Source: a candidate division WOR_3 bacterium SM23_42 (GTDB lineage: Bacteria > Hydrothermota > Tepidihabitantia > SM23-42). Taken from it: 64,000 nt of DNA. The notes beneath the pieces are model-generated. The model was not told the DNA's origin and ran no database searches. It saw nothing but the letters and a program-made list of their open reading frames with translations. Below are positions 17,322 through 39,471 of this stretch, piece after piece. Every line of letters starts with the position of its first letter. The first letter of the stretch is position 1. The DNA lies in the NCBI GenBank assembly GCA_001303785.1, contig LJUJ01000004.1, positions 64,845-128,844 on the forward strand, given 5' to 3'. A program made the position numbers and the translations under genes.

Positions 17322-17349
17322 TTGACATGCTATCTTATATGGGTATAAT
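17322..17349 (+). promoter_or_regulatory. sigma-70-type promoter (TTGACA-N16-TATAAT) upstream of the HU/IHF gene
   Basis: TTGACA at 17322-17327, TATAAT at 17344-17349. About 85-nt leader. AGGAGG SD before the ATG at 17434. Confidence 0.4.
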
Positions 17350-17433: not shown

Positions 17434-17733
17434 ATGATGCGAAGGGAATTTTTGATCGAAAAAATCGCCGAGAAGATTGGCCCAGCGTATACTAAAACAG
17501 ATATCGAAAAGTTGATTGATACGTTTTTGGATACGCTCTTTGAAATCTTGATACAAAACAAACGAGTCGAGTTGCGTAGGTTTGGAACTTTCGAGCTCCG
17601 AAAGAGGCCGGGCCGGAGTGCAAAGGCCCCCAAGAGTGGCAAGGTTTATACTCTTGCTGATCGATATGTACCATTCTTCCGTCCATCAAAGATATTCAAG
17701 AATATGGTTCAGGAAAGGACAAGGCCAGAGTAG
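17434..17733 (+). CDS. HU/IHF-family DNA-binding protein
   Basis: 99 aa. RRFGTFELRKRPGRSAKAPKSGKVYTLADRYVPFFRPSK matches the HU/IHF beta-arm (GFGxFxxRxRxxRxxRNPxTGxxxxIxxxxxxxFKxGK). Confidence 0.85.
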   Translation: MMRREFLIEKIAEKIGPAYTKTDIEKLIDTFLDTLFEILIQNKRVELRRFGTFELRKRPGRSAKAPKSGKVYTLADRYVPFFRPSKIFKNMVQERTRPE

Positions 17734-17880: not shown

Positions 17881-19464
17881 TTATCCGTTTAAGATCTTTT
17901 CGACTTCTTCCTTGTCAACATCCATGACATATGGAATTCCAGATATATTCGCAGCGTCTTTGGTCAGTGACGCGATGTCATCACGCGAGATATGTTTTAG
18001 GGCAAACTTACGATTGCCGGTCATTAGCTGTTTCAGGCCTTGGCCCATTCGTTCGACATATGTATAAACGCCAAGTGCTCCGGTTGGAACGCGGTCAAAA
18101 TCCTTACCCAATTCTTTTTTCAACTTTGATGCGGTTACGAATATCTCTTCTTTCTTGTTGCCAAAGCGCTCAATAAATACTGGAATTTCGTCCTCATCGA
18201 TCTTCTTGCCGATCGTTTTGCCGACCATAGCCGCACACAGAGGTCCGCGCGCCATACCGACAATCTTCGTGTACGGAGCACCCAGGGCGAGGGCCTTGAA
18301 GATTTGATCCTCGAAAGCGATACCACCAGCAAACGCGAGAGCTGGTACGTATTCACCCTTCTTTGCCAATTTATCTGTGTAGAAATAAGTCAAAGAATGA
18401 ATCTCGACCGGTGGCATACCCCATTCATTCATCATGTGCCAGGGACTCATACCAGTCCCGCCACCTGCTCCGTCCACAGTCAACAAGTCGATCTTCGCTT
18501 TCGAAGAGTATTTTACGGCTCGCGCCAGGTCGGCCGGACGGTAGGCACCCGTTTTCAAGAATACATACTTGGCTCCGGCTTTACGCAATTCCTCAACTCG
18601 TTTCATGAATGATTCTTCTTCGACCATGCCGATGCGTGAGTGTCGTTCAAATTCGGTAAATGTTTTGTGCTCAAACGCAGTGATGACATCGGGATCAAGC
18701 GGGTCCGGTAATACTACATAACCACGTTTTCTCAATATCTGTGCTTTCTTTAGATCTTTTATCTTCACCTCACCACCGATATCCTTGGCGCCTTGCCCCC
18801 ATTTCAACTCGACCGTTTCGACTCCGAGCTTTCGTATGGCAAATTCTTGCACACCGAGTCTCGTGTCTTCCACATTTGCCTGGACAATGATCATGCCATA
18901 GCCATCCCTTTGCCAGTCCTTGTAGAGTCGCACTCGGTTTTCAAGGTCGGGAGCCTTGAGTATTTTGTTATTCCTGATTTCACTCTTCATGTCCATGGCG
19001 ACAACATTTTCGCCTATTGTCAACATGGCTCCGGATAAGGCAGTGCCGATTGCCAATCCTTGCCAGTTATTCTTGGCGACATTAGTCGACCCTAGACCTG
19101 GAACGACCATCGGGAACTTCAGCTTGATGCCGTTGCCTGCGCCGAATCTCTGCTCGATATTGACGTTCGGAAAGATTGCCTTATCTGGATCAGCCTCGAT
19201 GCCGAAAGCACCAACCGCCGTGCCCATAATATTAAAATGAGAATAATCGACTGGATAGTTCTTCTCGGCGGCGGCGGTCAGTATGCCGAATGGTTGTGGG
19301 TATATTACCTCATGTCCGCGAATAGCAGATTTTCCAATTTCGCACATACCGATACACCCATCAACACACGTAACGCACATTCCGCTCAACGGAACAATAG
19401 AATCTTCGGTTCTGTTCTTTGTCAATGTTGCTGCTGAAGCATTCATTCTTGATAATGAAGGCAT
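17881..19464 (-). CDS. glutamate synthase-family FMN-binding protein (GltB central-domain-like), N-terminal Cys4 motif
   Basis: 527 aa. VDGAGGGTGMSPW and the surrounding TIM-barrel region resemble the FMN/FeS domain of the glutamate synthase large subunit (archaeal split type). N-terminal CVTCVDGCIGMC (CxxCxxxCxxxC). Good SD (GAAAGGAGAG) before the ATG. Lacks the amidotransferase and GXGXG domains. Confidence 0.8.
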   Translation of the reverse strand: MPSLSRMNASAATLTKNRTEDSIVPLSGMCVTCVDGCIGMCEIGKSAIRGHEVIYPQPFGILTAAAEKNYPVDYSHFNIMGTAVGAFGIEADPDKAIFPNVNIEQRFGAGNGIKLKFPMVVPGLGSTNVAKNNWQGLAIGTALSGAMLTIGENVVAMDMKSEIRNNKILKAPDLENRVRLYKDWQRDGYGMIIVQANVEDTRLGVQEFAIRKLGVETVELKWGQGAKDIGGEVKIKDLKKAQILRKRGYVVLPDPLDPDVITAFEHKTFTEFERHSRIGMVEEESFMKRVEELRKAGAKYVFLKTGAYRPADLARAVKYSSKAKIDLLTVDGAGGGTGMSPWHMMNEWGMPPVEIHSLTYFYTDKLAKKGEYVPALAFAGGIAFEDQIFKALALGAPYTKIVGMARGPLCAAMVGKTIGKKIDEDEIPVFIERFGNKKEEIFVTASKLKKELGKDFDRVPTGALGVYTYVERMGQGLKQLMTGNRKFALKHISRDDIASLTKDAANISGIPYVMDVDKEEVEKILNG

Positions 19465-19530
19465 ATTTTTCTCTCCTTTCGCTACTGATGACAGATAACT
19501 GATAACAGATGACTGCTTGGCATAGAGTGA

Positions 19531-19944
19531 TCAGCCATTATCAAGTCTGTCAAATATTTCTGTTTCATGTTTTTCACGTACTGACTGAATCAGATTAAAC
19601 AGCATACCACAGAGATCATTGTAGTCTTTGCTTAATCTGCGGTATGACTCTTTGTTTTCAAGCGATCCAGTTTCAAATAAATAATCTAAATGTTCAATTG
19701 TTTCTTGCGATGATGCATATGCGAGCGAGAGATAACGTAGATATTCGTTCTTATAGTGCCTCAAGGAAAAACCTTCAACGATGTTGCTGGAAACTGATTT
19801 AGACGACCCTCTTATTTGGCTTCCTTCTTCGTATAATTCGAATCGAGGGAGGCTTAAAGATATCTCATGAATTTCCAGTGCAAGCCTATGTGCTTGTTGA
19901 TAGACCTTGAGGTTCCGGTATCCTGTTTGTTTCTGGTGTTTCAT
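19531..19944 (-). CDS. four-helix-bundle protein (TIGR02436-type, '23S rRNA intervening-sequence protein' family)
   Basis: 137 aa. YRNLKVYQQAHRLALEIHEISLSLPRFELYEEGSQIRGSSKSVSSNIVEG is the signature of this family. The gene exactly fills the gap between the NuoG-like and GltB-like genes and is flanked by imperfect inverted repeats. Confidence 0.8.
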   Translation of the reverse strand: MKHQKQTGYRNLKVYQQAHRLALEIHEISLSLPRFELYEEGSQIRGSSKSVSSNIVEGFSLRHYKNEYLRYLSLAYASSQETIEHLDYLFETGSLENKESYRRLSKDYNDLCGMLFNLIQSVREKHETEIFDRLDNG

Positions 19945-19955
19945 ACAGTTATCCG

Positions 19956-20657
19956 TTATCTCTTATCTGACTTCTTCTGGTCCGGCCGTCCTTCGCATGT
20001 GCCGCAGTCACCCGTCGTAGCCATCCAGCATTGGTAATCTTCGTGGGCCTCGATACAGGTCGGTTCAAGAGAAAGACAGCCGCTGCACAAGTCGGTCATA
20101 GCATCTGGCCCCTGGCACCGCAGTTGGCATGCTGGACAAACATAGATGCATCCGCCACACAGGCGACACTCTTCGGACTTGATGTTAAAGGGAGTCTCGA
20201 TCTTTTTCTTATTGCCGCGGTTTGTAAAACCTATCGCACCCCCTTGCATTTGTTCCTTGCACATTCGAACACAGCGGCCGCAGAGCACGCAGTCTTCATG
20301 ACGCGCAGGGAAACGAACTGAGGTTACATGAAATTTGGACGCCAGGTCCTGAATCGTTTTTGATTGTGGACAGATTGAAACCAGTAATTCGATCATCATC
20401 TTGCGAGCATTGACTACGCGTTTTGTATTTGTGCGCACGATGAGCCCTTCTTCAACGGGATAGGTGCACGAGCTTACCAATTTGCTGTTCTCTCCTTTGT
20501 CTATTTCGACAAGACACAGACGGCAGCCACCGTAGGGTGATAATCCTTCGTAATAACAGAATGTTGGTATCTCAATACCGTAGAATTTGCAGGCTTCGAG
20601 AATGGTCGATCCTTCTTGAATCTGGACTTCGAGACCGTTCAGAATGAAGTTTATCAT
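19956..20657 (-). CDS. NuoG-N-terminal-like iron-sulfur protein: 2Fe-2S, His-ligated 4Fe-4S, 4Fe-4S; no H-cluster or molybdopterin domain (StnC/HydA-N-like)
   Basis: 233 aa. 2Fe-2S cysteines (CYYEGLSPYGGCRLCLV...SSC), HxxxCxxCxxxxxC (HEDCVLCGRCVRMC), CRLCGGCIYVCP, and a C-terminal Cys-rich tail. Confidence 0.8.
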   Translation of the reverse strand: MINFILNGLEVQIQEGSTILEACKFYGIEIPTFCYYEGLSPYGGCRLCLVEIDKGENSKLVSSCTYPVEEGLIVRTNTKRVVNARKMMIELLVSICPQSKTIQDLASKFHVTSVRFPARHEDCVLCGRCVRMCKEQMQGGAIGFTNRGNKKKIETPFNIKSEECRLCGGCIYVCPACQLRCQGPDAMTDLCSGCLSLEPTCIEAHEDYQCWMATTGDCGTCEGRPDQKKSDKR

Positions 20658-23600
20658 TTTTGCTCCTTTTCATCTTCATCTCTTACTTCTAGATCACATC
20701 TCAAGCATCTCTTTGCTTCTTTGATTGCTGCACTTTTTTTGAGCCCAAGGTCTACTTCATTGAAATTCTTCGCACGCTTGCGAGGGTCGAGTTTCCAGGT
20801 TACTTGCCGTGTACTTTCCAATGTTTCCTTTACCGTCAACTTGACTGGTTCGACGTAGATTGATGGTCTAGTCACTCTATACTCAAACTTGATTTCCTTA
20901 TCGCTTAGATACTGGTCAATGGCTTTGGCCGCTTTTTTGCCGTCGGCCATTGCGTCAATAACCGAACTGGGACCGCGTATCGCATCACCGCCCGCAAAGA
21001 CTCCCGGAATATTGGTTGCGAGTGTTTCTTCATTTACGACAAATGTATTCCAACCCGTTATTTCGAAATTGTGATCCTTCTTCAAGAAAGAAATATCGGG
21101 CTGCTCGCTGATAGCCGAGATCAGAGTATCCAACTCAAATACCGATTCGGATCCCTTAATTGGTATCGGACGACGCCGTCCGCTTTGGTCAACAGCCCCG
21201 AGTTCCATCCGTGTACACTTCACACCCGCAACGCGGCCGTCTTTCATGACGATTTCAGTGGGTGCGGTGAGGAATTGTATATTGATCCCTTCTTCAAGTG
21301 CGGCTTCTATCTCTTCCGCATATGCGGGCATTTCGTTCCTCGTTCTGCGATAGATGATTGTGACATCGTCTACTTGCGGGAGTCGGTTAGCGGCGCGAGC
21401 TGCATCGACAGCTGAATTACCGCCGCCGATTACACCAATCCTGGCGCCAATATTGGTTTTTTCGCTCAGACTTTGCTTGGTGAGAAATTCCATTGCCGGT
21501 ACTACACCCGCTGTATCTTCGTTCGGTATTCCCAATTTTATGCTTTTGTGTGCACCGATCGCAATATACACGGCTTTGTAACCCTGTTTAAATAGCTGAT
21601 CCAGTGTAAAATCGCGACCCAGTTTCTGATTAGTCATGACCTCCGCCCCGGCGCGGACTACCCGATCGATGTCCTCCTTTAATGCTTTTTTTGGAAGCCG
21701 ATAAGCTGGAATGCCGACGGCAAGCATGCCTCCGGCAACCGGCAGTGCCTCAAAAACAGTCGAAGCATAGCCTCTGCATGCCAGATCATGCGCAGCCATT
21801 AGGCCGGACGGTCCAGACCCGATTATCGCGACCTTGGCACCAGACGGTTTACGCCTCTTGGATGTTCGTTTTCTAGTGCTACTGTGCTCAATGGCCGCGC
21901 GCTTCAGGGCTCGAATCGAAATTGGTTTGCCACCTTGCCCAGCACGGCACTTTGTTTCACATGGGTGATGGCAAACGCGAGCGCAGATATTGAGCAGTGG
22001 GTTGTCCTTCAGGATAATATCGTATGCCTTATCAAATTGTCCGTGAGCGATATACGCAATGTATTGAGGTGCTTCTGTGTCAATCGGACATGTATGCTGA
22101 CACGGCGAGGAGATGATATGCTTGCACACAACTGCAGGACATCTCTTGTATTTTATGTGTGCCTGGTATTCGTCCCTGAAATATCTGAGAGTGCTGAGTA
22201 CGGGATTGGCTGCGGTTTGCCCCAACCCGCACATTGAAGCATCTTTGGTCGCGACTGCGAGTTCCTCCAGTAATGGGATATCCTCAGGACGCCCTCTGCC
22301 TTTGGTAATCTTATCGAGTATCTCCCAAATTCGCTGCGTGCCTTCACGACACGACAGACACTTGCCGCAAGATTCGTCACGTAGAAAGTTCATGAAGTAT
22401 TTCGCCACATCGACCATGCATGTGTCTTCGTCCATGACAATCATGCCGCCCGAACCCATCATCGAGCCTGCTTGTTTCAGACTTTCGTAGTCAATTGTAA
22501 GATCAAGGAGATTTTCGGGTATGCAACCGCCAGATGGACCCCCGGTCTGGACAGCCTTAATTTTCTTATTATTGGGTATTCCACCACCAATTTCGTAGAT
22601 GATATCTTTCATGGTGATGCCCATCGGGACTTCCACGAGACCCGTATTGCTAATTTTGCCTACGAGGGAGAAGATTTTCGTACCCTTGCTACCTTCAGTA
22701 CCGATCGCTGAATACCAATCGGCACCACGTAGAATAATGTGGGGTACGTTCGCCCACGTTTCAACGTTGTTTATGTTAGTCGGTTTTCTCCACAATCCTT
22801 GTTTTACAGGATATGGCGGACGTTGTTTTGGGATGCCAATCTTACCTTCTATGGCTGCGAGTAATGAGGTTTCTTCTCCGGATACGAATGCACCGGCGCC
22901 TCTTTTTACTTCAATCGAAAAATCAAAACCGGTGTGGAGCACATTCTTACCAAGTAGTCCATATTCCTCTGCCTGCTCTATTGCGATTTTGATTCTCCTC
23001 AAAGCGAGAGGGTATTCTGTACGTACATAAATGAAACCTTTTGCAGCCTCGATTGCCCGCGCTCCGATGATCATGCCTTCCAGAACCGCGTGGGGATCTG
23101 CTTCGAGTATGCTGCGATCCATGAAGGCACCGGGATCACCCTCGTCTGCGTTGCACACCACATACTTCGAATTTCCTGCAGTCTTATGGCACAGCTCCCA
23201 TTTGAGCCCGGTTGGAAACCCTGCACCTCCGCGGCCTCTTAGGCCGGCATCTTTGACTTCTTTTATGATATCTTCAGGAGTCATGTCAGTTAATGCTTTT
23301 TCGAGTGCCCGGTAGCCATCAAAGGCAATATACTCGTCAATATTTTCCGGATCGATTCGCCCACGGTTTCTTAGTACGATCAGACGTTGATGTTTGAAAA
23401 ATCCTATGTCCATCATTCTAGGTATTGGCGCAGCTTCGGTTGGCGGTACATACATCAGTTTCTTGACCGGCCTTCCCTTAATGAGGTGTTCTTCAACGAG
23501 AAGGGGGATGTCTTCCCGCTTCAGGCGTTGATAGAATATTCCGTCCGGTTGCACAACAACAATCGGCCCTCTTTCGCAAAAACCGTTGCATCCTGTGGAG

Positions 23601-23731
23601 ATGATTGCCACTTCATTCTGCAATTTTCTTTTCGTGATTTCTTTCTCTAACGTTGTCTTGATTTCAAAAGAGCCTGCCGCCACACAGCCTGTCCCGGCAC
23701 AGACGAGTAGATGCGTGCGATACTGTTTCAA
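20654..23731 (-). CDS. fusion protein: thioredoxin-like 2Fe-2S domain + NuoF-like FMN/NADH-binding 51-kDa subunit + GltD-like FAD/NAD(P)H oxidoreductase with FeS (HydB/NuoF-GltD fusion as in Stn/Nfn-Bfu-type complexes)
   Basis: 1025 aa. N-terminus CAGTGC...CNGFC. NuoF motifs GRGGAGFPTGLKWE, ADEGDPGAFMDRS, CGKCLSCREG. GltD-like N-terminal FeS cysteines (CPAVVCKHIISSPCQHTCP, CARVCHHPCETKC). Rossmann fold KVAIIGSGPSGLMAAHDLA and a second dinucleotide site IGVIGGGNSAVD. FAD motif VFAGGDAIRG. Confidence 0.85.
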   Translation of the reverse strand: MKQYRTHLLVCAGTGCVAAGSFEIKTTLEKEITKRKLQNEVAIISTGCNGFCERGPIVVVQPDGIFYQRLKREDIPLLVEEHLIKGRPVKKLMYVPPTEAAPIPRMMDIGFFKHQRLIVLRNRGRIDPENIDEYIAFDGYRALEKALTDMTPEDIIKEVKDAGLRGRGGAGFPTGLKWELCHKTAGNSKYVVCNADEGDPGAFMDRSILEADPHAVLEGMIIGARAIEAAKGFIYVRTEYPLALRRIKIAIEQAEEYGLLGKNVLHTGFDFSIEVKRGAGAFVSGEETSLLAAIEGKIGIPKQRPPYPVKQGLWRKPTNINNVETWANVPHIILRGADWYSAIGTEGSKGTKIFSLVGKISNTGLVEVPMGITMKDIIYEIGGGIPNNKKIKAVQTGGPSGGCIPENLLDLTIDYESLKQAGSMMGSGGMIVMDEDTCMVDVAKYFMNFLRDESCGKCLSCREGTQRIWEILDKITKGRGRPEDIPLLEELAVATKDASMCGLGQTAANPVLSTLRYFRDEYQAHIKYKRCPAVVCKHIISSPCQHTCPIDTEAPQYIAYIAHGQFDKAYDIILKDNPLLNICARVCHHPCETKCRAGQGGKPISIRALKRAAIEHSSTRKRTSKRRKPSGAKVAIIGSGPSGLMAAHDLACRGYASTVFEALPVAGGMLAVGIPAYRLPKKALKEDIDRVVRAGAEVMTNQKLGRDFTLDQLFKQGYKAVYIAIGAHKSIKLGIPNEDTAGVVPAMEFLTKQSLSEKTNIGARIGVIGGGNSAVDAARAANRLPQVDDVTIIYRRTRNEMPAYAEEIEAALEEGINIQFLTAPTEIVMKDGRVAGVKCTRMELGAVDQSGRRRPIPIKGSESVFELDTLISAISEQPDISFLKKDHNFEITGWNTFVVNEETLATNIPGVFAGGDAIRGPSSVIDAMADGKKAAKAIDQYLSDKEIKFEYRVTRPSIYVEPVKLTVKETLESTRQVTWKLDPRKRAKNFNEVDLGLKKSAAIKEAKRCLRCDLEVRDEDEKEQK

Positions 23732-23923
23732 ACTAACCTCCTAGCTGTAAAAGGTTACGTTTAATGGTTAGGGTCACGAGGCCCGCTTCGGATGAAAAAG
23801 CAACGTTTCTTGGCGATACTGACATCACGGGATTCGTTGAAGGGCAACGGTCCAAGTGTGTAGACATCACCGTGAGACGTCTAACGATACTGGCTTCGTA
23901 GCCATTACCGTAACCGATCCTTT

Positions 23924-24307
23924 TCAGTGCGTCCTCTCACTGCCAATCGCAAGGGCGTACTCATTGACAATATCACCTTTGACAATATGCCTTTCCAGGA
24001 TTTTTCTCATTTTCTCTGGCGTCAGGTCAACGTATTTAACTGGTGGTTTGCCGGTAATTTCCACTGTGGCCATAGGTTCTCGGCTGCAAAGTCCTGCGCA
24101 ACCCGATGTCGTGACAATCACATCATCGAGTTTCTTCTTCCGGATATCCTTGAGTAGTCCTGTGAGCACATCACGCGCACCGGCAGCAATGCCGCATGTT
24201 CCCATATGCACGGTAACCTTTGCCCGTGCCTTGCCTTGGCGTAGGACTGCAGTCCTTCTGACCTTGTCACGTATTTTTTCCAAATCGCCAATCTTTAATT
24301 TCTTCAC
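23924..24307 (-). CDS. NuoE-like thioredoxin-fold [2Fe-2S] ferredoxin (HydC/24-kDa subunit-like)
   Basis: Cys spacing CGIAAG...C...CAGLC, typical of NuoE/HndA. The ORF-track start at 24346 is a TTG overlapping the upstream gene by 80 nt. A GTG at 24307 preceded by AAGGAG-N6 is preferred. Confidence 0.75.
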   Translation of the reverse strand: MKKLKIGDLEKIRDKVRRTAVLRQGKARAKVTVHMGTCGIAAGARDVLTGLLKDIRKKKLDDVIVTTSGCAGLCSREPMATVEITGKPPVKYVDLTPEKMRKILERHIVKGDIVNEYALAIGSERTH

Positions 24308-24860
24308 TTTTTGCTCCTTTCTGAATTGCCTGTAATCCCTCCTCAATTTGTTCTCTTAGAAACAGGATTATTTCAGGGTCGTTGATTGCCACTCCGTTAA
24401 GTCTCTTTTTGATTTCTTTGGTGCTAAAGATAAACTCTTGGTCGCCCTTACGGTGACGGTATTTGAAATCTGCTTTGGGGCTGCTACCCGCAATGCAGGT
24501 AGTAATCGTCTCGGCCATGTTTCCGAGAGGCTTTCGATCGATGTGATCATATACGAACCTCGCGGTGATTCTTGTGCCCTTACCTGGTTTCGATCTAACG
24601 TCGAGGCTGCCGGCGGCTTCTTTTGTAGCCTGAGCGAGCATTGAAAGCCCCAAACCAACTCTTCTCGTTCCTTTCGTTGTATAGAACGGATCAATCGACT
24701 TGGTGAGGGTCTCTTTGTCCATTCCTCTACCATCGTCATTGATCTTGATGAGTAGCAAATTCCCGACGATGTCCTCTTCGATCACAATCTCAATGTTCGT
24801 TGCCCCAGCAGCCACAGAATTTTCGATGATGTCCAATATGTGGAGCGAGAGGTCTTCCAT
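24267..24860 (-). CDS. histidine-kinase-like ATPase (HATPase_c) domain protein, kinase-like component of the hydrogenase-associated regulatory module
   Basis: 197 aa. N-box/G-box-like INDDGRGMD, GLGLSMLAQ. No DHp or sensor domain. Confidence 0.6.
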   Translation of the reverse strand: MEDLSLHILDIIENSVAAGATNIEIVIEEDIVGNLLLIKINDDGRGMDKETLTKSIDPFYTTKGTRRVGLGLSMLAQATKEAAGSLDVRSKPGKGTRITARFVYDHIDRKPLGNMAETITTCIAGSSPKADFKYRHRKGDQEFIFSTKEIKKRLNGVAINDPEIILFLREQIEEGLQAIQKGAKSEEIKDWRFGKNT

Positions 24861-24862
24861 GT

Positions 24863-25612
24863 CTAAGCCTCCAGCATCACGGAACGTCCTTGCTTAACTT
24901 TGAATGCTTTGCCTAGTTCTTCGATGGTCGGTGCAGCAATCCTGAAGCGAGCGATTACCTTGCCGATTTCGTCCAGACTGTGAGCATCAGATGACGATAT
25001 CAGTGAGAACTTCTCTATTTGAGGCGCCATCTTGGCTGCCTCGGCATGGGTGATTGAAGAGGAAATCTCCAAGGCATCAAGTTCGAGACCCTCAGGTATG
25101 AATCCCAATTGACCGATGATACTGTAGGCTTCCCGGTCGATGTGAGAAGCAATGGCCAAGCCGTCCAACCGGTGAATCTCTTGAACGGTGTCGCTAATCG
25201 ACAGATTTGTTGCGCCGATCAACAATCTGTGGTTGTAACCCTCGACTTCATCGAATTCATTGGCAATGATCTGCTCACCGAACAACTTTTCTTTGTTCTC
25301 GCCGGGTGCAAGGTTCTGATATACTAATTGCTGCATTATCAGAGCAGTATCGACGTCTTTAAATAATCCGATAACGTGAACTTCTTCCGAACTGGTGATT
25401 TCCATGCCAGCAAGCACGGTTAGACTCGTGTCTCGAGCCGCGTTCGCTGCGGCCCTTAGGTTTTCCGCTGAGTTATGGTCACATATTGCGATCATATCGA
25501 GTTTCTTGGCAAGCGCGGCCTTGACTACTCTCCTGGGGGACATTGTCAAATCCGCGCAGGGTGATAGACACGTATGAATGTGCAGATCCGCACGATAGCA
25601 TCGCAACATCAA
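24863..25612 (-). CDS. PHP (polymerase/histidinol-phosphatase) family metal-dependent phosphoesterase
   Basis: 249 aa. ADLHIHTCLSPCAD, ICDHNSAENL, IASHID and SSDAH histidine/aspartate metal-binding motifs. Confidence 0.75.
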   Translation of the reverse strand: MMLRCYRADLHIHTCLSPCADLTMSPRRVVKAALAKKLDMIAICDHNSAENLRAAANAARDTSLTVLAGMEITSSEEVHVIGLFKDVDTALIMQQLVYQNLAPGENKEKLFGEQIIANEFDEVEGYNHRLLIGATNLSISDTVQEIHRLDGLAIASHIDREAYSIIGQLGFIPEGLELDALEISSSITHAEAAKMAPQIEKFSLISSSDAHSLDEIGKVIARFRIAAPTIEELGKAFKVKQGRSVMLEA

Positions 25613-25968
25613 CGCTTTCCGCTGATACCCATTTCATATAGTCTGCCTACCAATTCGAAAGCCGGTGAATCACTTGTCATTATTGGCAGGCCTTCGGATT
25701 CGGCCTTTTCTATAGTCTCCTTTTCTGGCATACGTCCATTGATCATCACGATCCCTGCGATTTCTTTTAACATTGCCACAGCTACGACATTCGGATGCAC
25801 TTGCAAAGTTATCCAGACATCACCCTTCTTACTATTTGCCATCACATCACTCAGAAGGTCACTCGAGTAACCTCCGCATACTTCTTTGTCTAGTTGTTGC
25901 TCTCCACATGCTACTTGGAGATTAAGCGATTTGACTATCTCGGTAAGCTTCATCTTGCTTTTCTCCAT
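25609..25968 (-). CDS. DRTGG domain protein
   Basis: 119 aa. Pattern G..SDLLSDVM...GDVWITLQVHPNVVAVAMLKEIAGIVMINGRMPE is typical of the stand-alone DRTGG domain found with CBS/phosphatase regulators. Start may be the internal M (MKLTEI). Confidence 0.6.
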   Translation of the reverse strand: MEKSKMKLTEIVKSLNLQVACGEQQLDKEVCGGYSSDLLSDVMANSKKGDVWITLQVHPNVVAVAMLKEIAGIVMINGRMPEKETIEKAESEGLPIMTSDSPAFELVGRLYEMGISGKR

Positions 25969-27248
25969 TTTTTTTCACCTTGCGATTCATTTCTGCTAAT
26001 GTATATGCAATCCTCTGGTTTTGCTTCACCACGCACGATATCTTCAGCCAGGGTCTGACAATCTGGAGCGCCGCATACCCCGCAATCGGTGCCGGGAAGC
26101 TTGCCAACCAGTTCCTCTTTCATTTTCAATTTTTCGATCGCTACGCCACGGTCTGCGTCAAGTGGTGGAAAGGACTTGGGCTCAACCGCCCAAGCAAATG
26201 AAAAGAAATTTTCTTTGTAGAGTTTCTGCACTAATTCGGTATTCACTCTTCTCTTTCCGCCAAAATGCCTTAGAAGTCTTAGGACATTACTCTTGGCGAC
26301 AAATCTGTTCTCTACGGTAAGCGGACCACCAATACATCCATCTGGGCATACCAGACATTCGAGATACTCGATATTACGCAATCTCCCTGATTCCACATCT
26401 TCGAGAATGCGGATCGTATCCAGCAAACCAGACACCGAAACAGTGTTGGAGTATTTGAGTCCCCTGATTTCACCACCCTCAAAGGCCCAGCCAATTCCGA
26501 CGCCGCTAATGCGTGTTTGTGTCTGCATCATCAACAGCCCGGCCTCTTGCTTCAGTTTCATCATTACTTTGTTGTATATTTCTCGTATGGAAATTGCGCC
26601 ATCAAGATGCGATTTTGCCATACTTTCGGGATGATTAATCGACACCATCTTGGCCGAACACGGCGTGATGTGGATGATACCGATTTCTTCAGCCTTGAGC
26701 TCCTCCTGTTTTGCTGTCTCACTACGCAAATTCTTTGCTGCGATTTCGCGAGGCGGCTCGAGTGGCAAAATGTTGCCACAGAGACTTGGGAACAGCCTCT
26801 GCACAAGCCGCACAACAACCGGGCATATTGATGAGATTATGGGTCGGGGAGATCTGTTCTCGTCGAGGTACTCTTCAGTGGCGACGCTCATCATTTCGCA
26901 GACCAATGCCTCGTCATACACATGGTCAAAGCCGATTTCTTTGAGTACGGTCAGAATCTCAGAAGGCATTGATTGTTGGCCAAATTGAGTGTAAAGTACA
27001 GGCGAAGGTAACGCGATTTTGAATTTGAAGCGATTGAGATCAGAGAGGAGAGTCGTTAGTGGTATTATAGCGCTGTGGGGGCACGCCCTGAGACATTCGC
27101 CACAGTCAATGCATCTTTCGTAATTGATATGTGCCTTCTGTTCGCGGACGCGTATTGCCTTTGTTGGACACACCTTCATACAAGTGACGCAACCAATGCA
27201 CTTTGCCTTATCAACTTTTATGGAGTGAAAGTATGTTTGTTCAGCCAT
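25950..27248 (-). CDS. [FeFe]-hydrogenase-like protein of the putative sensory type (HydS-like): 2x 4Fe-4S ferredoxin + H-cluster domain with altered motifs + C-terminal Cx2Cx4Cx16C; no PAS domain
   Basis: 432 aa. CIGCVTCMKVCP and CIDCGECLRACP. L1 is SSICP (canonical TSCCP; first Cys replaced by Ile). L2 is TPCSAK (MPCxxK). L3 is EYLECLVCPDGCIGGP (ExMACxxGCxxGG). C-terminal CGVCGAPDCQTLAEDIVRGEAKPEDC. Flanked by kinase-like, DRTGG and PHP genes. Confidence 0.8.
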   Translation of the reverse strand: MAEQTYFHSIKVDKAKCIGCVTCMKVCPTKAIRVREQKAHINYERCIDCGECLRACPHSAIIPLTTLLSDLNRFKFKIALPSPVLYTQFGQQSMPSEILTVLKEIGFDHVYDEALVCEMMSVATEEYLDENRSPRPIISSICPVVVRLVQRLFPSLCGNILPLEPPREIAAKNLRSETAKQEELKAEEIGIIHITPCSAKMVSINHPESMAKSHLDGAISIREIYNKVMMKLKQEAGLLMMQTQTRISGVGIGWAFEGGEIRGLKYSNTVSVSGLLDTIRILEDVESGRLRNIEYLECLVCPDGCIGGPLTVENRFVAKSNVLRLLRHFGGKRRVNTELVQKLYKENFFSFAWAVEPKSFPPLDADRGVAIEKLKMKEELVGKLPGTDCGVCGAPDCQTLAEDIVRGEAKPEDCIYISRNESQGEKKWRKAR

Positions 27249-27720
27249 TCTTTCCGTTCAGAAGAATCTTAATTTCCAAGCTTGTACCTTGCCCTACTTT
27301 TGAAGTTATTTGGAAAACATCAGAGTTCTTCTTTATATTAGGCAGACCCATTCCAGCACCAAATCCCATTTCTCTCATTTCTTCTGTTGCGGTCGAGAAC
27401 CCGGGTTTCATTGCCAACTCAATATTCTCTATGCCTGGCCCTTTATCGTCGATTATCAGTAATATGTTGTCCTGATATACGTTTATTTTCATCGTGCCGT
27501 GTTGGGCATACATCACTACATTCATTTCTGCTTCATATGCAGCAATAGCGATGCGTCTTATTATATCACTATTGATACCAATCTCCCGCAGAGTGTTTCT
27601 TATCTTACACGACGATTCGCCAGCATTGACGAAGTCACCACCTTGTATTTCGAATTCTTGCTGGAACAAAACCCTATTTTTCATTCCTTTTCTCTTCATC
27701 TCCATATGTGGACGCACCAC
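27241..27720 (-). CDS. RsbW/SpoIIAB-like anti-sigma-factor-type Ser/Thr kinase (HATPase_c only)
   Basis: Roughly 145-159 aa. IDDKGPGIEN, GFGAGMGLPNI. Track start 27720 is a GTG; internal ATGs at 27705, 27699 and 27684 are alternatives. Confidence 0.65.
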   Translation of the reverse strand: MVRPHMEMKRKGMKNRVLFQQEFEIQGGDFVNAGESSCKIRNTLREIGINSDIIRRIAIAAYEAEMNVVMYAQHGTMKINVYQDNILLIIDDKGPGIENIELAMKPGFSTATEEMREMGFGAGMGLPNIKKNSDVFQITSKVGQGTSLEIKILLNGKNG

Positions 27721-28063
27721 TTACGCCATTCGTATATAGTATACCGCATACTTCGTACATCTTCAATTTTGTTGTCAGGAGAGGAATGTTACATTGTTGA
27801 GCTAGTTCGATTGTCTCAGCCGATGGATTCTTGCCCCGCACGAAGACGATTGCTCCAATCCCCGCGATTTCACAAGTTCTCACAACTTGTTTGTTAGTAA
27901 GTCCGGTGATGAGCAAGGTGTTGCGATCTGAGAAGGGTTGGGAAAATGCAAGAACATCACTCATCAAATCTGATGCCTTGGCAAATTTTATATCAATGCT
28001 GTGCGCTTCTTGTTCTGAGACTAATTCTGCGTTCAGCAGTTCTCTAATTTGGGAAAGGATCAT
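27674..28063 (-). CDS. DRTGG domain protein
   Basis: 129 aa. DLMSDVLAFSQP...TLLITGLTNKQVVRTCEIAGIGAIVFVRGKNP. Second stand-alone DRTGG in the module. Confidence 0.6.
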   Translation of the reverse strand: MILSQIRELLNAELVSEQEAHSIDIKFAKASDLMSDVLAFSQPFSDRNTLLITGLTNKQVVRTCEIAGIGAIVFVRGKNPSAETIELAQQCNIPLLTTKLKMYEVCGILYTNGVSGASTYGDEEKRNEK

Positions 28064-28066
28064 CTG

Positions 28067-28567
28067 CTACTTTTTTCTTTTTCGAGTTACCTTTCTTTTG
28101 TGTTTCTTTTTCTTATATTGATCGATTATTTGGTCAACCTTCTGGACAGTGGACTGTCCATAATACTTACCATCGACCACAACTATGGGTGCCAAAGCGC
28201 AAGCGCCCAAGCAGTTAACACTTTCCAACGTGAAGTTCTCATCTGCAGTTGTGCAACCGGGTTCGATTTTAAGCTTGTTCTTCACTCGATCCAGGACCGT
28301 TGGTGCACCTCGCACGTGGCATGCTGTGCCGAGGCACACGGTTACGACATGTTTGCCCCTGGGTGTGAGGCTAAAGGCTCGATAGAATGTCGCGACACTG
28401 TAGACATCGATCAGGGGAATGCACAATCTATTTGATATCAGTCTCAGTGCTTCAGGAGGGAGCCAATTGTATTTCTCTTGTACATCTTGTAGAACTGAAA
28501 TTAACGATGATTTTTCATTGTGATATCTTTCAACTATTTTTGTCAGATCTTGCGCGTTGATTTTCAT
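28067..28567 (-). CDS. NuoE-family [2Fe-2S] protein (NADH dehydrogenase 24-kDa subunit / HydC / HoxE-like)
   Basis: 166 aa. CLGTACHVRGAP...CLGACALAPIVVVDGKYY is the canonical NuoE cysteine pattern. Lys-rich C-terminal tail. First gene of the operon, directly behind the promoter. Confidence 0.85.
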   Translation of the reverse strand: MKINAQDLTKIVERYHNEKSSLISVLQDVQEKYNWLPPEALRLISNRLCIPLIDVYSVATFYRAFSLTPRGKHVVTVCLGTACHVRGAPTVLDRVKNKLKIEPGCTTADENFTLESVNCLGACALAPIVVVDGKYYGQSTVQKVDQIIDQYKKKKHKRKVTRKRKK

Positions 28568-28590
28568 ATGACTCCTTTCTCGTGGTCATT

Positions 28591-28618
28591 ATTATACCTA
28601 TTTTTCCGCGATAGTCAA
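28591..28618 (-). promoter_or_regulatory. near-consensus sigma-70 promoter (TTGACT-N16-TATAAT) of the NuoE/HydS-like operon
   Basis: Minus strand reads ...ctgtatgTTGACTatcgcggaaaaataggTATAATaatgaccacgagAAAGGAGtcatATG. ATG is at 28567. Confidence 0.45.
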
Positions 28619-28705
28619 CATACAGATTGGTTGTTTTATGTTGCATTATGCATAAATTGGGTTTGGAAATCAAGCATATATGATTCAATAGGGCGTTCGC
28701 AGGCC

Positions 28706-28735
28706 AAAAAAAAGCCGGGTTCAATCGAACCCGGC
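28706..28735 (-). terminator. rho-independent terminator of gdh (9-bp GC-rich stem, 4-nt loop, U8 tract)
   Basis: Plus strand aaaaaaaaGCCGGGTTCaatcGAACCCGGC. On the minus strand the hairpin is followed by TTTTTTTT, 22 nt after the gdh stop. Confidence 0.7.
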
Positions 28736-28756
28736 CTCTCGGGATTAATAGAACAA

Positions 28757-30040
28757 CTAGTTTCTACCTATTCTACCAAACATACGGACAGAATCTGCCA
28801 CGCGCTGTACGGCCAATATATAGGCGGCATGACGCATATCGGTTCTGTGTTTGTCGGCGGCTCGTACAACATCCCAGAATGCTCTTTGCATCATCCGGTA
28901 ACACCTTTCGTTGACCTCTTCTTCGCTCAGGAAATATTTCTGTAAATCCTGAATCCACTCTAGGTACGATACAGTAACGCCACCAGCATTAGCTAAGATG
29001 TCGGGGATTACAAAGATTCTTTTAGCGTTCAATATCTCATCTGCTTCATTGGTTGTTGGCCCATTGGCGCCTTCGCATATCACTCTTGCTTTGATCTTAT
29101 CAGCATTCTTAGAATTTATCATGCCTTCGATTGCGCAGGGGAGAAGGATGTCACACTTCAGATTGATAAGTTCTTCATTCATGATGGAATCATGTTGCTT
29201 AAATCCAGATACGGTTTTTGCCCTTGCAACATAATTGTCCAGTTCAGGGATATTTATGCCGTTTCTGTTATATATGCCGCCATAAATGTCAGTTATCGCA
29301 ACAATCTTACAGCCATAATTGTATAAGAGTTGGGCAATAGAGGCACCAACGTTGCCATAACCTATGATGGCAATTCGCTTGCCTTCGAGCGGGTATTCGA
29401 GGTGTTTGGACGCCTCGATCAATGCATAATACATACCAAGACCGGTAGCACCGCTTCTGCCCTTTGAACCCCCGCATTCTAATGGCTTGCCTGTCACTAC
29501 CGCAGGCTCGAAATGTCCGACATATCTGCTGTATGCATCACATATCCATGCCATGGTTCGGGCATTGGTCCAGACGTCTGGCGCAGGGATATCTTTGTTC
29601 GGTCCAATTATATCCTTGATTGAATATGTGTATTCCTTGGTCAGTTTTTCCAGGTCGCTTTCGGTCATTTCGGGCGGATTGCAGATGACTGCACCCTTAG
29701 CACCACCTAAGGGTAAATCCAGCACTGCAGTCTTCCAAGTCATCCAGGCAGCGAGTGCTTTACATTCACTCAAGGAAGCATCCGGGCTGTATCTTATGCC
29801 GCCTTTACCCGGGCCTCGCGTGGTGCTGTGCTGAACCCGATAACCAGTATATGTCTCAACCTTGCCGTCGTCGCGTGTGATTGTCATGTGCACTGTGAGT
29901 TCTTTTTCCGGAAACTTCAAGCGATTGTAAATCCAGGGTTCGAGGTCGAGCGTGGATGCAGCTCTTTCATACTGCACTGTCGCCTCGATGAACGGATCGT
30001 ATTTCTTCTGCCTAAGTTTTGCGTCATTTATTTTTACCAT
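28757..30040 (-). CDS. gdhA: NAD(P)-dependent glutamate dehydrogenase
   Basis: Glu/Leu/Phe/Val dehydrogenase motifs (LGGAKGAVICNP; Rossmann IIGYGNVGAS). ORF track starts at 30052 (MEAFM...). The second ATG at 30040 has a GGAGG SD at optimal spacing and is preferred. Confidence 0.9.
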   Translation of the reverse strand: MVKINDAKLRQKKYDPFIEATVQYERAASTLDLEPWIYNRLKFPEKELTVHMTITRDDGKVETYTGYRVQHSTTRGPGKGGIRYSPDASLSECKALAAWMTWKTAVLDLPLGGAKGAVICNPPEMTESDLEKLTKEYTYSIKDIIGPNKDIPAPDVWTNARTMAWICDAYSRYVGHFEPAVVTGKPLECGGSKGRSGATGLGMYYALIEASKHLEYPLEGKRIAIIGYGNVGASIAQLLYNYGCKIVAITDIYGGIYNRNGINIPELDNYVARAKTVSGFKQHDSIMNEELINLKCDILLPCAIEGMINSKNADKIKARVICEGANGPTTNEADEILNAKRIFVIPDILANAGGVTVSYLEWIQDLQKYFLSEEEVNERCYRMMQRAFWDVVRAADKHRTDMRHAAYILAVQRVADSVRMFGRIGRN

Positions 30041-30066
30041 GAAAGCCTCCATCTGTCGCTATATAG

Positions 30067-30085
30067 TTGCATTATTCATGCCTGG
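30067..30085 (-). promoter_or_regulatory. candidate sigma-54 (-24/-12) promoter upstream of gdh
   Basis: Minus strand reads cAGGCATGaataaTGCAa, against the consensus TGGCACG-N4-TTGCA. GG-to-GC spacing is exact. Predicted TSS about 30057, giving a 16-nt leader with an SD to the ATG at 30040. A sigma-54 activator (NtrC-type) gene is adjacent. Confidence 0.3.
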
Positions 30086-30220
30086 AAGCTGTCATGAAAT
30101 TTCAGTACTTATTTCTGTACCCTCAAGCATTATGCAATGTACCATAGCAAAATGCTATGACACAATTGGCAACGCTGGTTATGACTAGAAGAATTTTGTT
30201 GATGAACTACGCTGAGATTC

Positions 30221-39383: not shown

Positions 39384-39471
39384 TTTGCCCTCGCAATCAT
39401 ATTTTACCGCTGCGCCTCGTTTTGTCAATACCCTATGTTGACAATAATAGGTAATTAATTATAATTTGTGC

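Follow-up and report, generated by a model that had tools for sequence, protein, structure and literature searches.

The window analysed here is a stretch of 64,000 nucleotides from the candidate division WOR-3 bacterium SM23_42 (contig LJUJ01000004.1, positions 64,845 to 128,844 of the forward strand), and all coordinates count from its first letter. It contains an operon of twelve intact, co-directional open reading frames (ORFs) on the minus strand, extending from 28567 to 17881. Four of its genes, encoding a NuoE-like protein, a NuoF-like protein fused to a GltD-like domain (NuoF::GltD), a short NuoG-N-terminal-like protein (NuoG-N-like) and a divergent relative of the flavin mononucleotide (FMN) domain of glutamate synthase (GltB-like), form an essentially invariant module that recurs across phyla. 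In WOR-3, this module is combined with a cassette of HydS, DRTGG, HATPase and PHP genes. The twelve co-directional genes had been proposed in an earlier reading of the DNA letters and ORF translations (the sequence-only reading). Searches with Pfam and NCBIfam profile hidden Markov models (HMMs) on the operon and window ORFs bore out its domain assignments, including the H-cluster, NuoF, GltD and GltB calls. In the order of transcription, the operon comprises the following genes.

28067..28567, minus strand: NuoE/HydC-like [2Fe-2S] subunit (BfuC); PF01257 (2Fe-2S_thioredx) at 180 bits, with NuoE/HoxE matches in NCBIfam
27674..28063, minus strand: DRTGG-domain protein 1; PF07085 at 26 bits
27241..27720, minus strand: small HATPase_c protein of the SpoIIAB/RsbW-like serine kinase type; PF02518 and PF13581, start codon uncertain
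25950..27248, minus strand: HydS, a Group D (M2e) [FeFe]-hydrogenase-like protein and putative H2 sensor; two Fer4 domains, Fe_hyd_lg_C (102 bits) and PF04060
25609..25968, minus strand: DRTGG-domain protein 2; PF07085 at 23.8 bits, just under the cut-off, position conserved
24863..25612, minus strand: PHP-family phosphoesterase; PF02811 at 36 bits and PHP_C
24267..24860, minus strand: HATPase_c protein 2, a histidine-kinase-type ATPase domain without HisKA; PF02518 at 63 bits
23924..24346, minus strand: HydD-like small thioredoxin-type ferredoxin of 140 amino acids (aa); PF01257 at 21.9 bits, under the Pfam cut-off
20654..23731, minus strand: NuoF/BfuB-like FMN subunit fused to a GltD/NfnL-like flavin adenine dinucleotide (FAD)-NADPH domain, 1025 aa; TTG start, AGGAGG ribosome-binding site
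19956..20657, minus strand: short NuoG-N-like subunit of 233 aa; Fer2_4 and Fer4, corresponding to one [2Fe-2S] and two [4Fe-4S] clusters
19531..19944, minus strand: four-helix-bundle gene (23S_rRNA_IVP, 23S rRNA IVS protein family); PF05635 at 86 bits
17881..19464, minus strand: GltB-like protein of 527 aa, a divergent glutamate synthase (GltS) synthase-domain protein (FMN TIM barrel); PF01645 (Glu_synthase) at 54 bits, residues 280-409 only

Neighbouring ORFs share a few bases or lie no more than 11 nt apart, with two exceptions: a gap of 192 nt (23732-23923) upstream of the NuoF::GltD gene and a gap of 66 nt (19465-19530) upstream of the GltB-like gene. No promoter or terminator was predicted within the 192-nt gap. 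In the WOR-3 relative L082, a four-helix-bundle gene fills the equivalent place.

The NuoE-like subunit carries four cysteines (Cys78, 83, 119 and 123) that are invariant among 126 orthologues, and in loci without the cassette its gene lies directly upstream of NuoF::GltD. The 140-aa protein, which had been taken for a second NuoE, is instead a HydD-like thioredoxin-type ferredoxin with three conserved cysteines (Cys51, 83 and 87, each conserved at 90%) and an invariant His120. It matched the clostridial 2Fe-2S ferredoxin model NF041612 (NCBIfam) at 36 bits, and in clostridial operons the gene of this ferredoxin precedes HydB. The combination of three conserved cysteines with His120 suggests a Cys3His-ligated cluster in this family. 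Homologues are about 127 aa long, and the true start of the ferredoxin probably lies downstream of 24346.

The fusion protein is 100% identical to a database entry for SM23_42 and combines 2Fe-2S_thioredx, Complex1_51K (159 bits), SLBB, NADH_4Fe-4S (115 bits), Fer4_20 and Pyr_redox_2 domains (Pfam). Against structures in the PDB, its residues 3-541 matched HydB of NiFe-Bfu at 793 bits, other full-length HydB, NfnB and StnB chains at 643-775 bits and Nqo1 at 383 bits. The N-terminal thioredoxin-like [2Fe-2S] domain (B2; PF01257, residues 5-80) has invariant Cys48 and Cys52 and at least 90% conserved Cys11 and Cys16, and the ligands of the N3-type [4Fe-4S] cluster B1 (Cys455, 458, 461 and 501) are invariant. 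The alignment to solved BfuB subunits ends at about residue 541-551. From residue 523 onwards, the fusion has the Fer4_20 di-cluster domain of a GltD-like module, at the place where canonical BfuB has its two-cluster ferredoxin domain. Residues 542-1013 matched residues 102-567 of NfnA at 381 bits, and the best PDB matches of the GltD-like module were the NfnL-like NADPH-binding domain of NfnA and StnC (381, 339 and 311 bits) and NfnI-L. With E. coli GltD, the module aligned from end to end (207 bits), with the cluster cysteines kept and the FAD motif GxGxxG (GSGPSG), the NADPH motif GGGNSAxD (GGGNSAVD) and the YRR motif intact. A genome scan showed that fusions of the NuoF::GltD type in many other lineages adjoin true HydA genes or 900-aa formate dehydrogenase (Fdh)-like genes.

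The short NuoG-N-like subunit lacks both the His-ligated cluster motif and an Fdh-like domain. Among 80 orthologues, 20 cysteines are conserved, of which 18 are invariant and two (Cys191 and Cys201) are kept at 99%. Eight of these cysteines, six invariant and two at 99%, lie in a C-terminal extension (residues 177-221). Only versions partnered with a GltB-like gene align past residue 185, and the eight-cysteine tail is therefore a candidate docking or electron-transfer module.

The sequence-only reading had called the last gene product a glutamate-synthase-family FMN protein. This stood as far as membership in PF01645 is concerned; the protein proved to be only a distant relative of GltS, without the amidotransferase, the GXGXG domain and the canonical 3Fe-4S site. 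In a local alignment with E. coli GltB that spans the TIM barrel, the QGAK motif, R247 and the GGTGxSP phosphate-binding motif are kept. This Arg is invariant and lies exactly 20 positions after the Lys of QGAK, which equals the spacing of K972 and R992 in GltS. These two residues are taken here to be the ones that bind 2-oxoglutarate in the Azospirillum and Synechocystis GltS structures. The segment with the three cysteines of the [3Fe-4S] cluster (C-x5-C-x4-C) is deleted relative to E. coli GltB, and an N-terminal C30-x2-C33-x3-C37-x3-C41 motif is invariant. The protein has no nucleotide-binding or electron-input domain of its own and no match among the NCBIfam models. It is the most conserved subunit of the module, with 73-76% identity across WOR-3, Aminicenantes, Spirochaetes, Deltaproteobacteria, KSB1, Krumholzibacteria and Edwardsbacteria (up to 95% among WOR-3 relatives), compared with about 62% for the fusion. 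A phmmer search of 1.8 billion cluster representatives gave 1108 hits at E ≤ 0.001, mostly fragments, and by sequence the family is a compact, separate clade. The label 'glutamate synthase' for this protein comes from context and not from its sequence.

One distant member of the clade, the 800-aa P0363, contains two [4Fe-4S] clusters (two Fer4 domains) and an FrhB/FdhB (F420-binding) domain fused to a domain of the GltB-like clade (37% identity, the Cys4 motif included). The GltB-like catalytic domain therefore also occurs with a different electron-input module, and this F420-linked relative parallels the predicted F420-dependent glutamate synthases (PMC3448663).

One further gene lies between NuoG-N-like and GltB-like. 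In the WOR-3 relatives, this four-helix-bundle gene is absent, single or double at varying junctions, its copies are divergent, and in the window it is flanked by a 15-nt inverted repeat (arms 19487-19501 and 19946-19960). It is a variable insert, small mobile or selfish in behaviour, and probably not a subunit.

Conservation of the module was followed in two collections. Species-representative genomes were scanned with an alignment of the NuoF::GltD protein, and metagenomes were scanned with the GltB-like family as seed, where at least 573 of 600 candidate stretches were confirmed and 80 loci were kept. NuoE, NuoF::GltD, NuoG-N-like and GltB-like occurred in this order and without the cassette at six genome loci from five phyla: an Aminicenantales metagenome-assembled genome (MAG), a Eubacteriales-labelled MAG (Bacillota), an Acidobacteriota MAG, a Gemmatimonadaceae MAG, an unclassified MAG and the Lokiarchaeon Loki_b31. 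In the metagenomes, the NuoG-N-like gene precedes GltB-like at 79 of the 80 loci, the remaining contig being too short to tell. Where the upstream sequence was sufficient, NuoF::GltD was found upstream at 44 of 45 loci and NuoE at 40 of 41. The four genes thus form an essentially invariant module. This gene-neighbourhood comparison found the module order recurrent in many phyla.

The window order is shared by four further WOR-3 loci, including two complete genomes (CP070664 and CP070834). Two of the four (L082 and L084) have kinase, activator and gdh, one (L083) has a truncated gdh remnant, and one (L086) has gdh without kinase and activator. Beyond WOR-3, gdh adjoins the module at many loci, among them loci of Acidobacteriota, Gemmatimonadota and Lokiarchaeota, with three copies on the Loki contig. 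The glutamine synthetase gene glnA lies directly upstream and co-directional at six loci (L001, L096, L097, L124, L129 and L151). Among 86 loci, no conserved fifth gene for an amidotransferase, a GXGXG protein or an aminotransferase was common beside the module. The downstream genes of the same orientation that recurred most often are housekeeping genes (M50 peptidase, TrpS/TyrS, ScpA/B), none of their clusters covering more than 9 loci, and no link of the module to 2-oxoglutarate:ferredoxin oxidoreductase, other downstream catabolic, hydroxyglutarate-pathway or methylamine genes was seen in the same 86 loci. At L094, L101, L113, L119 and L145, the gene that directly follows GltB-like encodes a large protein with PPDK_N (PEP-utilising, ATP-binding) and nucleotidyltransferase domains. 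This protein may have a modifying or regulatory function; the cluster is partly merged with GAF histidine kinases and the association is weak.

Transcription signals and regulatory genes were then located on the minus strand upstream of the operon, as follows.

28591..28618, minus strand: sigma-70-type operon promoter TTGACT-16-TATAAT, 11 of 12 consensus positions
28642..28652, no strand: perfect 11-bp palindrome TGCATAATGCA, upstream of the operon promoter
about 28706..28736, minus strand: gdh intrinsic terminator, a GC-rich hairpin GGCCGGGTTC/GAACCCGGC followed by T8
28757..30052, minus strand: glutamate dehydrogenase gene gdh, directly upstream of the operon; ELFV_dehydrog at 257 bits
30068..30083, minus strand: sigma-54-type -24/-12 element AGGCATGAATAATGCA, upstream of gdh
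30221-31579, minus strand: NtrC-type sigma-54 activator (Pfam)
31579-33789, minus strand: dCache_1/PAS histidine kinase (Pfam)

Taken alone, the promoter match is within chance (26 sites compared with 21.7 expected in a window scan). Since TTGACT-N16-TATAAT stands at the same place before the NuoE gene in three WOR-3 relatives (L082, L083 and L084), with hexamers and spacing kept and the rest of the intergenic sequence diverged, the near-consensus promoter of the sequence-only reading was accepted as real. The rho-independent terminator that it had placed behind gdh was likewise found, and L082-L084 have a hairpin at the same position. The neighbours it had named, i.e., gdh, the NtrC-type two-component system and a CN_hydrolase gene, were confirmed by Pfam. 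The annotated ATG of gdh at 30052 is perhaps too far upstream, because a GGAGG sequence comes after it. Near-copies of TGCATAATGCA lie upstream of gdh at 30126-30136 and 30068-30078. With at most one mismatch, the palindrome occurred 6 times in the window compared with 1.8 expected, with three of the sites inside the upstream regions of the operon and gdh, and GCAT-N-ATGC motifs resembling it are present in L082 and L084. By sequence, it is a candidate regulator binding site and may serve the adjacent NtrC-type activator. A further motif, CGGATAAC, at three operon gene junctions was not significantly enriched (3 compared with 1.5 expected).

In most phyla, the control of the module points to sigma-54. 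Of the 29 metagenome loci whose upstream sequence reaches 7.5 kb or more, 16 encode an NtrC-type activator there on the same strand. A -24/-12 element (TGGCAC-N5-TTGC with at most two mismatches, GG and GC intact) was present in 20 of 22 NtrC-to-NuoE intergenic regions, compared with a mean of 2.4 in shuffled sequences and 2 on the opposite strand. In WOR-3, the element precedes gdh and not the operon, as a perfect TTGGCACGAATCTTGC in L082 and a near-perfect AGGCACACTTATTGCA in L084, and a sigma-54 promoter looked for in front of the operon in the window was not found. Sites resembling TGGCAC-N5-TTGC are not enriched across the window (61 compared with 55 expected). The kinases paired with the activator in other phyla are cytoplasmic GAF-HisKA-HATPase proteins (L006, L101, L125, L142, L143, L147 and L162), whereas the WOR-3 kinase is of the extracytoplasmic dCache_1 and PAS type. 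The regulatory input to the activator is exchanged between WOR-3 and the other phyla. The link to nitrogen and glutamate metabolism is thus stronger than the sequence-only reading saw, because the module is conserved across phyla in the company of NtrC/sigma-54 and of adjacent gdh or glnA.

The cassette was examined for its relation to hydrogenase operons. The HydS-like protein has 432 aa and carries two cluster motifs of the ferredoxin type at its N-terminus, followed by the H-domain and, at the C-terminus, the PF04060 cluster; a PAS domain was not detected by Pfam. Its H-cluster cysteines (Cys 142, 197, 301 and 305) and C-terminal cysteines (Cys 389, 392, 397 and 414) are invariant among 18 orthologues, as are all 16 of its 16 cluster cysteines. 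In an alignment with Desulfovibrio DdH, the H-cluster motifs SSICP, TPCSAKMVS and ECLVCPDGC keep all four cysteines, the proton-relay Cys299 is replaced by Ile (mostly Ala in the family), the relay Glu by Ser, Met497 by Leu and Met353 by Thr. The Group D (M2e) signature described for TamHydS comprises loss of Cys299, Leu for Met497, Ser for Met353 and the absence of PAS (PMC8163306, PMC10407848). In residue pattern and domain content, the protein fits this putatively sensory class, as had been suggested. Group D enzymes are regarded as putative H2 sensors with unknown signalling partners (PMC8163306, PMC10407848, PMC13104023), and a few genes, kinases among them, are reported to separate M2e genes from the trimeric bifurcating hydrogenases downstream (PMC3561251). 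The best NCBIfam match of the small HATPase_c protein was TIGR01925 (spIIAB) at 50 bits, below the cut-off.

Loci of Clostridia, Erysipelotrichia and relatives (L058, L060, L061, L067 and L076) show the order NuoE, DRTGG, HATPase, HydS, DRTGG, PHP, HATPase, small thioredoxin-like ferredoxin, HydB, HydA. The WOR-3 window follows exactly this clostridial hyd gene order as far as HydB. The first NuoE-like gene is therefore the structural HydC/BfuC gene and lies outside the cassette, so that of the seven-gene regulatory cassette proposed before, the DRTGG/HATPase/HydS/DRTGG/PHP/HATPase set stands and the first gene does not. The complex encoded downstream of HydS in the window has no H-cluster subunit by Pfam or NCBIfam, and HydS does not occupy the usual Group D place upstream of a Group A hydrogenase. 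In agreement with the sequence-only reading, no catalytic hydrogenase was present among the scanned window ORFs (nearly all of at least 150 aa), nor were HydE/F/G, GATase_2 or GXGXG. The combination of the putative H2 sensor with the module is present in WOR-3, but the cassette is a minority addition, accompanying the module at only 4 of 29 metagenome loci, and it is mostly a WOR-3 add-on. At one metagenome locus, L129, glnA stands in front of the HydS cassette and the module together.

Variants of these arrangements were also seen. In L057 (MAG Zod_Metabat.86), the genes behind the cassette and NuoE encode a stand-alone NuoF of 646 aa and a GltD::NuoG-like fusion of 701 aa, and there is no GltB-like gene; this connectivity is of the Stn/NfnABC type, so both connectivities occur beside the same cassette. 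The DRTGG/HATPase/PHP set without HydS stands beside Bfu-type complexes at L009, L031, L035, L040 and L068, in Anaerolineales, Verrucomicrobiota, Spirochaetaceae and Bipolaricaulota, and the kinase/phosphatase set may perhaps be a general regulator of BfuBC cores.

Among known systems, the Nfn-Bfu/Stn complexes (NfnABC of Caldicellulosiruptor saccharolyticus and Thermococcus sibiricus, StnABC of Sporomusa ovata) provided the best PDB matches for both halves of the fusion. They share with the WOR-3 complex the NuoE-like C subunit, a NuoF-like FMN subunit with an N-terminal thioredoxin-like [2Fe-2S] domain, the NuoG-N-terminal clusters and the NfnL/GltD-like FAD/NADPH module. In NfnABC and Stn, however, the NuoG-like subunit contains both the GltD-like module and an Fdh-like domain (PMC11829005, PMC12018979, PMC10482914), whereas in the WOR-3 complex the GltD-like module forms the C-terminus of the NuoF-like subunit and replaces the B3/B4 di-cluster domain. 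The WOR-3 complex also differs in having no Fdh-like domain, a 233-aa NuoG-like subunit with a novel eight-cysteine tail and an added FMN subunit resembling the GltS synthase domain. The Stn/NfnABC architecture that had been assumed for this locus was rejected, since the position of the GltD-like domain differs in the structure papers (PMC11829005, PMC10482914).

The Group D HydS hydrogenase operons of Caldanaerobacter (TTE0887-0894), Caldicellulosiruptor (Csac_1857-1864) and Thermoanaerobacter mathranii have an identical order from NuoE (HydC) to HydB (PMC3561251, PMC8163306) and the same HydS domain and active-site pattern. In WOR-3, HydA is replaced by the short NuoG-N-like and GltB-like genes, and HydB carries the GltD-like domain. 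Group D HydS was reported beside bifurcating hydrogenases, but in WOR-3 it stands beside a complex without hydrogenase. The same NuoF::GltD-type fusion is known from HydB of archaeal hybrid [FeFe]/[NiFe] hydrogenases (PMC11216029); hybrid and bifurcating hydrogenase complexes with a GltD-bearing HydB end in a hydrogenase or Fdh-like subunit, whereas the WOR-3 complex ends in the GltB-like FMN protein.

NADPH-glutamate synthase (GltB/GltD) shares with the WOR-3 complex the GltD-like FAD/2x[4Fe-4S]/NADPH module and, as far as the partial 54-bit match and the kept QGAK, Arg and GGTGxSP motifs indicate, the PF01645 FMN TIM barrel. Here, by contrast, the N-terminal nucleophile (Ntn) amidotransferase, central and GXGXG domains are missing, the 3Fe-4S site is deleted and the N-terminal Cys4 motif is gained, the GltD module is carried by the NuoF-like subunit, and NuoE- and NuoG-like subunits are present. 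A precedent for a swapped electron-input module is FGltS of methanogens, putative F420-dependent glutamate synthases predicted from genomic context (PMC3448663). FGltS was proposed to be glutamine-dependent, and the input here is NuoEF(G)/GltD-like and not F420-dependent; both are known from prediction. Among the features of the Bfu core, the BfuB FMN/NADH site with B1, the B2 domain and the BfuC [2Fe-2S] cluster were all found, and the C-terminal B3/B4 domain was not. A survey of the Bfu family lists hydrogen peroxide, pyruvate, CO, aldehydes, aryl-CoA/benzoyl-CoA, NADP+, F420, formate and quinones as third substrates (Schut et al. 2022, PMC9304861). It distinguishes 57 BfuB clades, of which 17 (clades 1-17) are unassigned, and makes no mention of a glutamate-synthase-type partner (PMC9304861).

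It is proposed, with about an even chance of being right, that the operon encodes a Bfu/Nfn-type NAD(P)H/ferredoxin complex with an ammonia-dependent glutamate-forming or glutamate-oxidising site, placed in WOR-3 under a putative H2 sensor. The products would assemble into one multi-subunit iron-sulfur flavoprotein on a HydBC/BfuBC-type core, consisting of the NuoE-like BfuC, the HydD-like ferredoxin, the BfuB-like FMN/NADH subunit with its NfnL/GltD-like module (two [4Fe-4S] clusters, FAD and an NADPH site), the short NuoG-N-like carrier and, as terminal FMN subunit, the homologue of the glutamate synthase domain that reduces 2-oxoglutarate/iminoglutarate. A single complex with a GltB-like terminal site is favoured by the invariant gene order, by the extreme conservation of the GltB-like protein and its lack of an electron-input domain, and by the co-occurrence of the eight-cysteine tail with this protein. 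2-Oxoglutarate and ammonia, or glutamate, appear to be the most likely substrates because the Lys, Arg and FMN motifs are kept and because of the company of gdh, glnA and NtrC/sigma-54. With no amidotransferase nearby, the reaction would depend on ammonia.

The predicted complex would connect the NADH, NADPH and (probably) ferredoxin pools to the reductive amination 2-oxoglutarate + NH3 + 2e- -> glutamate, or to its reverse. In this role it would be a glutamate synthase that uses ammonia and no ATP, or else a sink for reductant, and it may bifurcate or confurcate electrons. The 2-oxoglutarate + NH4+/glutamate couple lies at about -130 mV (calculated from the glutamate dehydrogenase (GDH) equilibrium), well above NAD(P)H and ferredoxin. 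In one conceivable mode, NADH and reduced ferredoxin would be spent to force amination, a pattern proposed by Schut et al. for high-potential acceptors such as menaquinone and H2O2 (PMC9304861). In another, exergonic amination would drive the reduction of ferredoxin by NAD(P)H, following the classical logic of flavin-based bifurcation. Running in reverse, the complex could make glutamate oxidation feasible. In most phyla, the four-gene module would be a sigma-54 operon under the adjacent NtrC-type two-component system; in WOR-3, gdh would have taken the sigma-54 promoter and the module would be read from the sigma-70-type promoter, with the cassette tuning the complex post-translationally to H2 or redox pressure. 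Thermococcales dispose of reductant into amino acids at high H2, so an H2-responsive switch on such a complex would be sensible. The further-reaching proposal of a new functional Bfu class ('GltS-Bfu'), an amidotransferase-less glutamate synthase/oxidoreductase that would be bifurcating or confurcating and gated by an H2 sensor in WOR-3, is put forward only tentatively and is on balance doubtful.

Several observations weigh against the proposed ammonia-dependent glutamate complex. The GltB-like protein, like the rest of the operon, lacks the Ntn amidotransferase, the GXGXG domain and the canonical 3Fe-4S site by Pfam. Its relation to GltS is remote: searches of all PDB chains with the sequence and the family profile returned no GltS but only chance-level or de novo TIM-barrel matches, the protein being too diverged for profile detection of GltS structures; and in comparisons with E. 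coli GltB, the family HMM scored 7.5 bits and an hhalign run with the family reached a probability of only 43%. The AlphaFold model (mean predicted local distance difference test, pLDDT, of 67, with the N-terminal 100 residues unmodelled) fits lactate oxidase, IDI-2 and IMPDH, all generic FMN barrels, better than any structure named GltS. Bifurcation in HydABC requires the B3/B4 clusters, according to work cited in PMC11829005; the fusion does not have them in canonical form, and the enzyme is therefore not classed among the proven Bfu members. With a functional gdh beside it, an enzyme that forms glutamate from ammonia would also seem superfluous. On the sensor side, no H-cluster maturase gene (HydE/F/G) was found within the 64-kb window, H2 sensing by Group D is itself unproven, and the C-terminal cluster shows no H2 response (PMC13104023). 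Finally, the complete WOR-3 genome CP070802 (L081) has the module without an adjacent NuoE; its fusion, NuoG-N-like, four-helix-bundle and GltB-like genes stand together, and the cassette is also lacking at this site.

Other explanations place the terminal FMN subunit in a different role. The operon could encode a plain Nfn-type transhydrogenase (NADPH, NAD+ and ferredoxin), a rearranged Nfn-Bfu that re-balances NADPH from the adjacent GDH in amino-acid fermentation. The nearest solved relatives of the fusion halves, NfnB and NfnA/StnC, the intact NADPH and FAD motifs, the adjacent gdh and the peptide-fermentation-like surroundings (M42 aminopeptidases and S9 peptidase) agree with this. It leaves unexplained, however, that the most conserved subunit is the GltB-like protein, 73-76% identical across phyla compared with about 62% for the fusion, and that this protein has retained its motif for FMN phosphate binding together with the Lys and Arg for substrate binding, which would be unexpected for a scaffold. 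The adjacency of glnA and the control by NtrC/sigma-54 also favour nitrogen metabolism over pure redox balancing, and the ferredoxin-reducing B3/B4 domain of NfnB is missing, so that a plain transhydrogenase is considered unlikely, though it keeps some weight. The same structural evidence that suggests glutamate formation would equally suit a catabolic complex, in which glutamate is oxidised at the FMN subunit, reduced ferredoxin pushes the electrons to NAD(P)+ by confurcation (compare Ldh-EtfAB) and the H2 sensor shuts the complex down at high H2. Glutamate oxidation with NAD+ is endergonic by about +36 kJ/mol (calculated from the GDH equilibrium). dCache_1 domains are of a type that binds amino or organic acids, and one is found extracytoplasmically in the WOR-3 kinase; the surroundings are rich in peptidases, and in Lokiarchaeota, which are described as fermenting amino acids, the module is flanked by three copies of gdh. 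The glnA adjacency and the cytoplasmic GAF-type kinases of other phyla nevertheless fit assimilation better, a linked 2-oxoglutarate:ferredoxin oxidoreductase or downstream catabolic gene is lacking at the 86 loci, and the direction cannot be read from sequence. A catabolic role was accordingly given a rather low probability.

A different 2-oxo, 2-hydroxy or amino acid as substrate of the FMN subunit, such as 2-oxoglutarate/2-hydroxyglutarate or an N-methylglutamate-type substrate, would make the complex a bifurcating 2-oxoacid reductase unrelated to ammonia; this is improbable. PF01645 does include enzymes other than glutamate synthase, e.g., N-methylglutamate synthase subunits (PMC6237917), and the GltB-like protein is extremely divergent from GltS. 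The fold ranking does not discriminate, however, since the model has a pLDDT of only 67 and all the matched folds belong to one FMN TIM-barrel superfamily; hydroxyglutarate-pathway and methylamine genes are not linked to the module at the 86 loci, and the gdh, glnA and NtrC associations favour glutamate and ammonia. Chance juxtaposition of functionally uncoupled units, namely an Nfn-like enzyme, a separate FMN enzyme and a cassette that outlasted the loss of its hydrogenase operon, would account for the absence of the cassette from 25 of 29 module loci and from L081, for the 192-nt gap within the operon and for the inserted, selfish-looking four-helix-bundle gene. Yet the window order recurs in the four further WOR-3 loci with 74-89% protein identity, all ORFs are intact, the ligands of the H-cluster and of the other clusters do not vary, interruptions of the four-gene core are practically absent, and cassette, module and glnA recur together in the independent metagenome locus L129. 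Such a juxtaposition is very improbable.

Concerning novelty, the combination had been called undescribed. No published description was found in the searchable literature, subscription-only papers lying outside its scope. The module is not described in reviews of GltD modules (PMC8097209), in HydDB (PMC5037454), in the structure papers on Stn and Nfn-Bfu or in the paper on archaeal hydrogenases. While the Bfu/Nfn family and glutamate synthase are known kinds, the module itself and its link to a Group D HydS cassette are undescribed within the searchable literature. If the proposed function is correct, glutamate or 2-oxoglutarate plus ammonia would join the third substrates of Bfu enzymes, which so far include no nitrogen-assimilation reaction. 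A highly conserved enzyme, abundant in anoxic sediments, would then link redox carriers to the central nitrogen node in uncultured anaerobes, for assimilation or as a reductant sink, and would provide an ATP-free, ferredoxin-linked ammonia/2-oxoglutarate/glutamate route in anaerobes including Asgard archaea, Aminicenantes and WOR-3. It would also be the first case of a Group D [FeFe]-hydrogenase-type sensor controlling a non-hydrogenase, and a natural system in which the HydS/DRTGG/HATPase/PHP cassette stands apart from a hydrogenase, allowing H2 sensing and action on the BfuBC core to be probed. Even with another substrate, the module would be a well-defined, widespread and unstudied complex.

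The wider surroundings of the operon are rich in genes of nitrogen and peptide metabolism, namely genes for the CN_hydrolase, a LUD-domain protein, GTP-PEPCK, two tandem M42 glutamyl aminopeptidases and an S9 prolyl oligopeptidase, in the intervals 33927-35373 (minus), 35905-37785 (minus), 39466-41486 (plus) and 48888-50858 (plus). Farther away, a 963-aa ORF at 59046-61937 (plus), without a Pfam match, adjoins a gene for a Por-secretion-tail protein. At the other end, a gene for an HU/IHF-like DNA-binding protein (17434-17733, plus) converges on the end of the operon, with mreBCD beyond it; a terminator-like hairpin on the minus strand (17466-17487) lies within this gene. Its promoter at 17322-17349 is a perfect 12/12 match to TTGACA-16-TATAAT, and the convergent arrangement is kept in L081 and L084.

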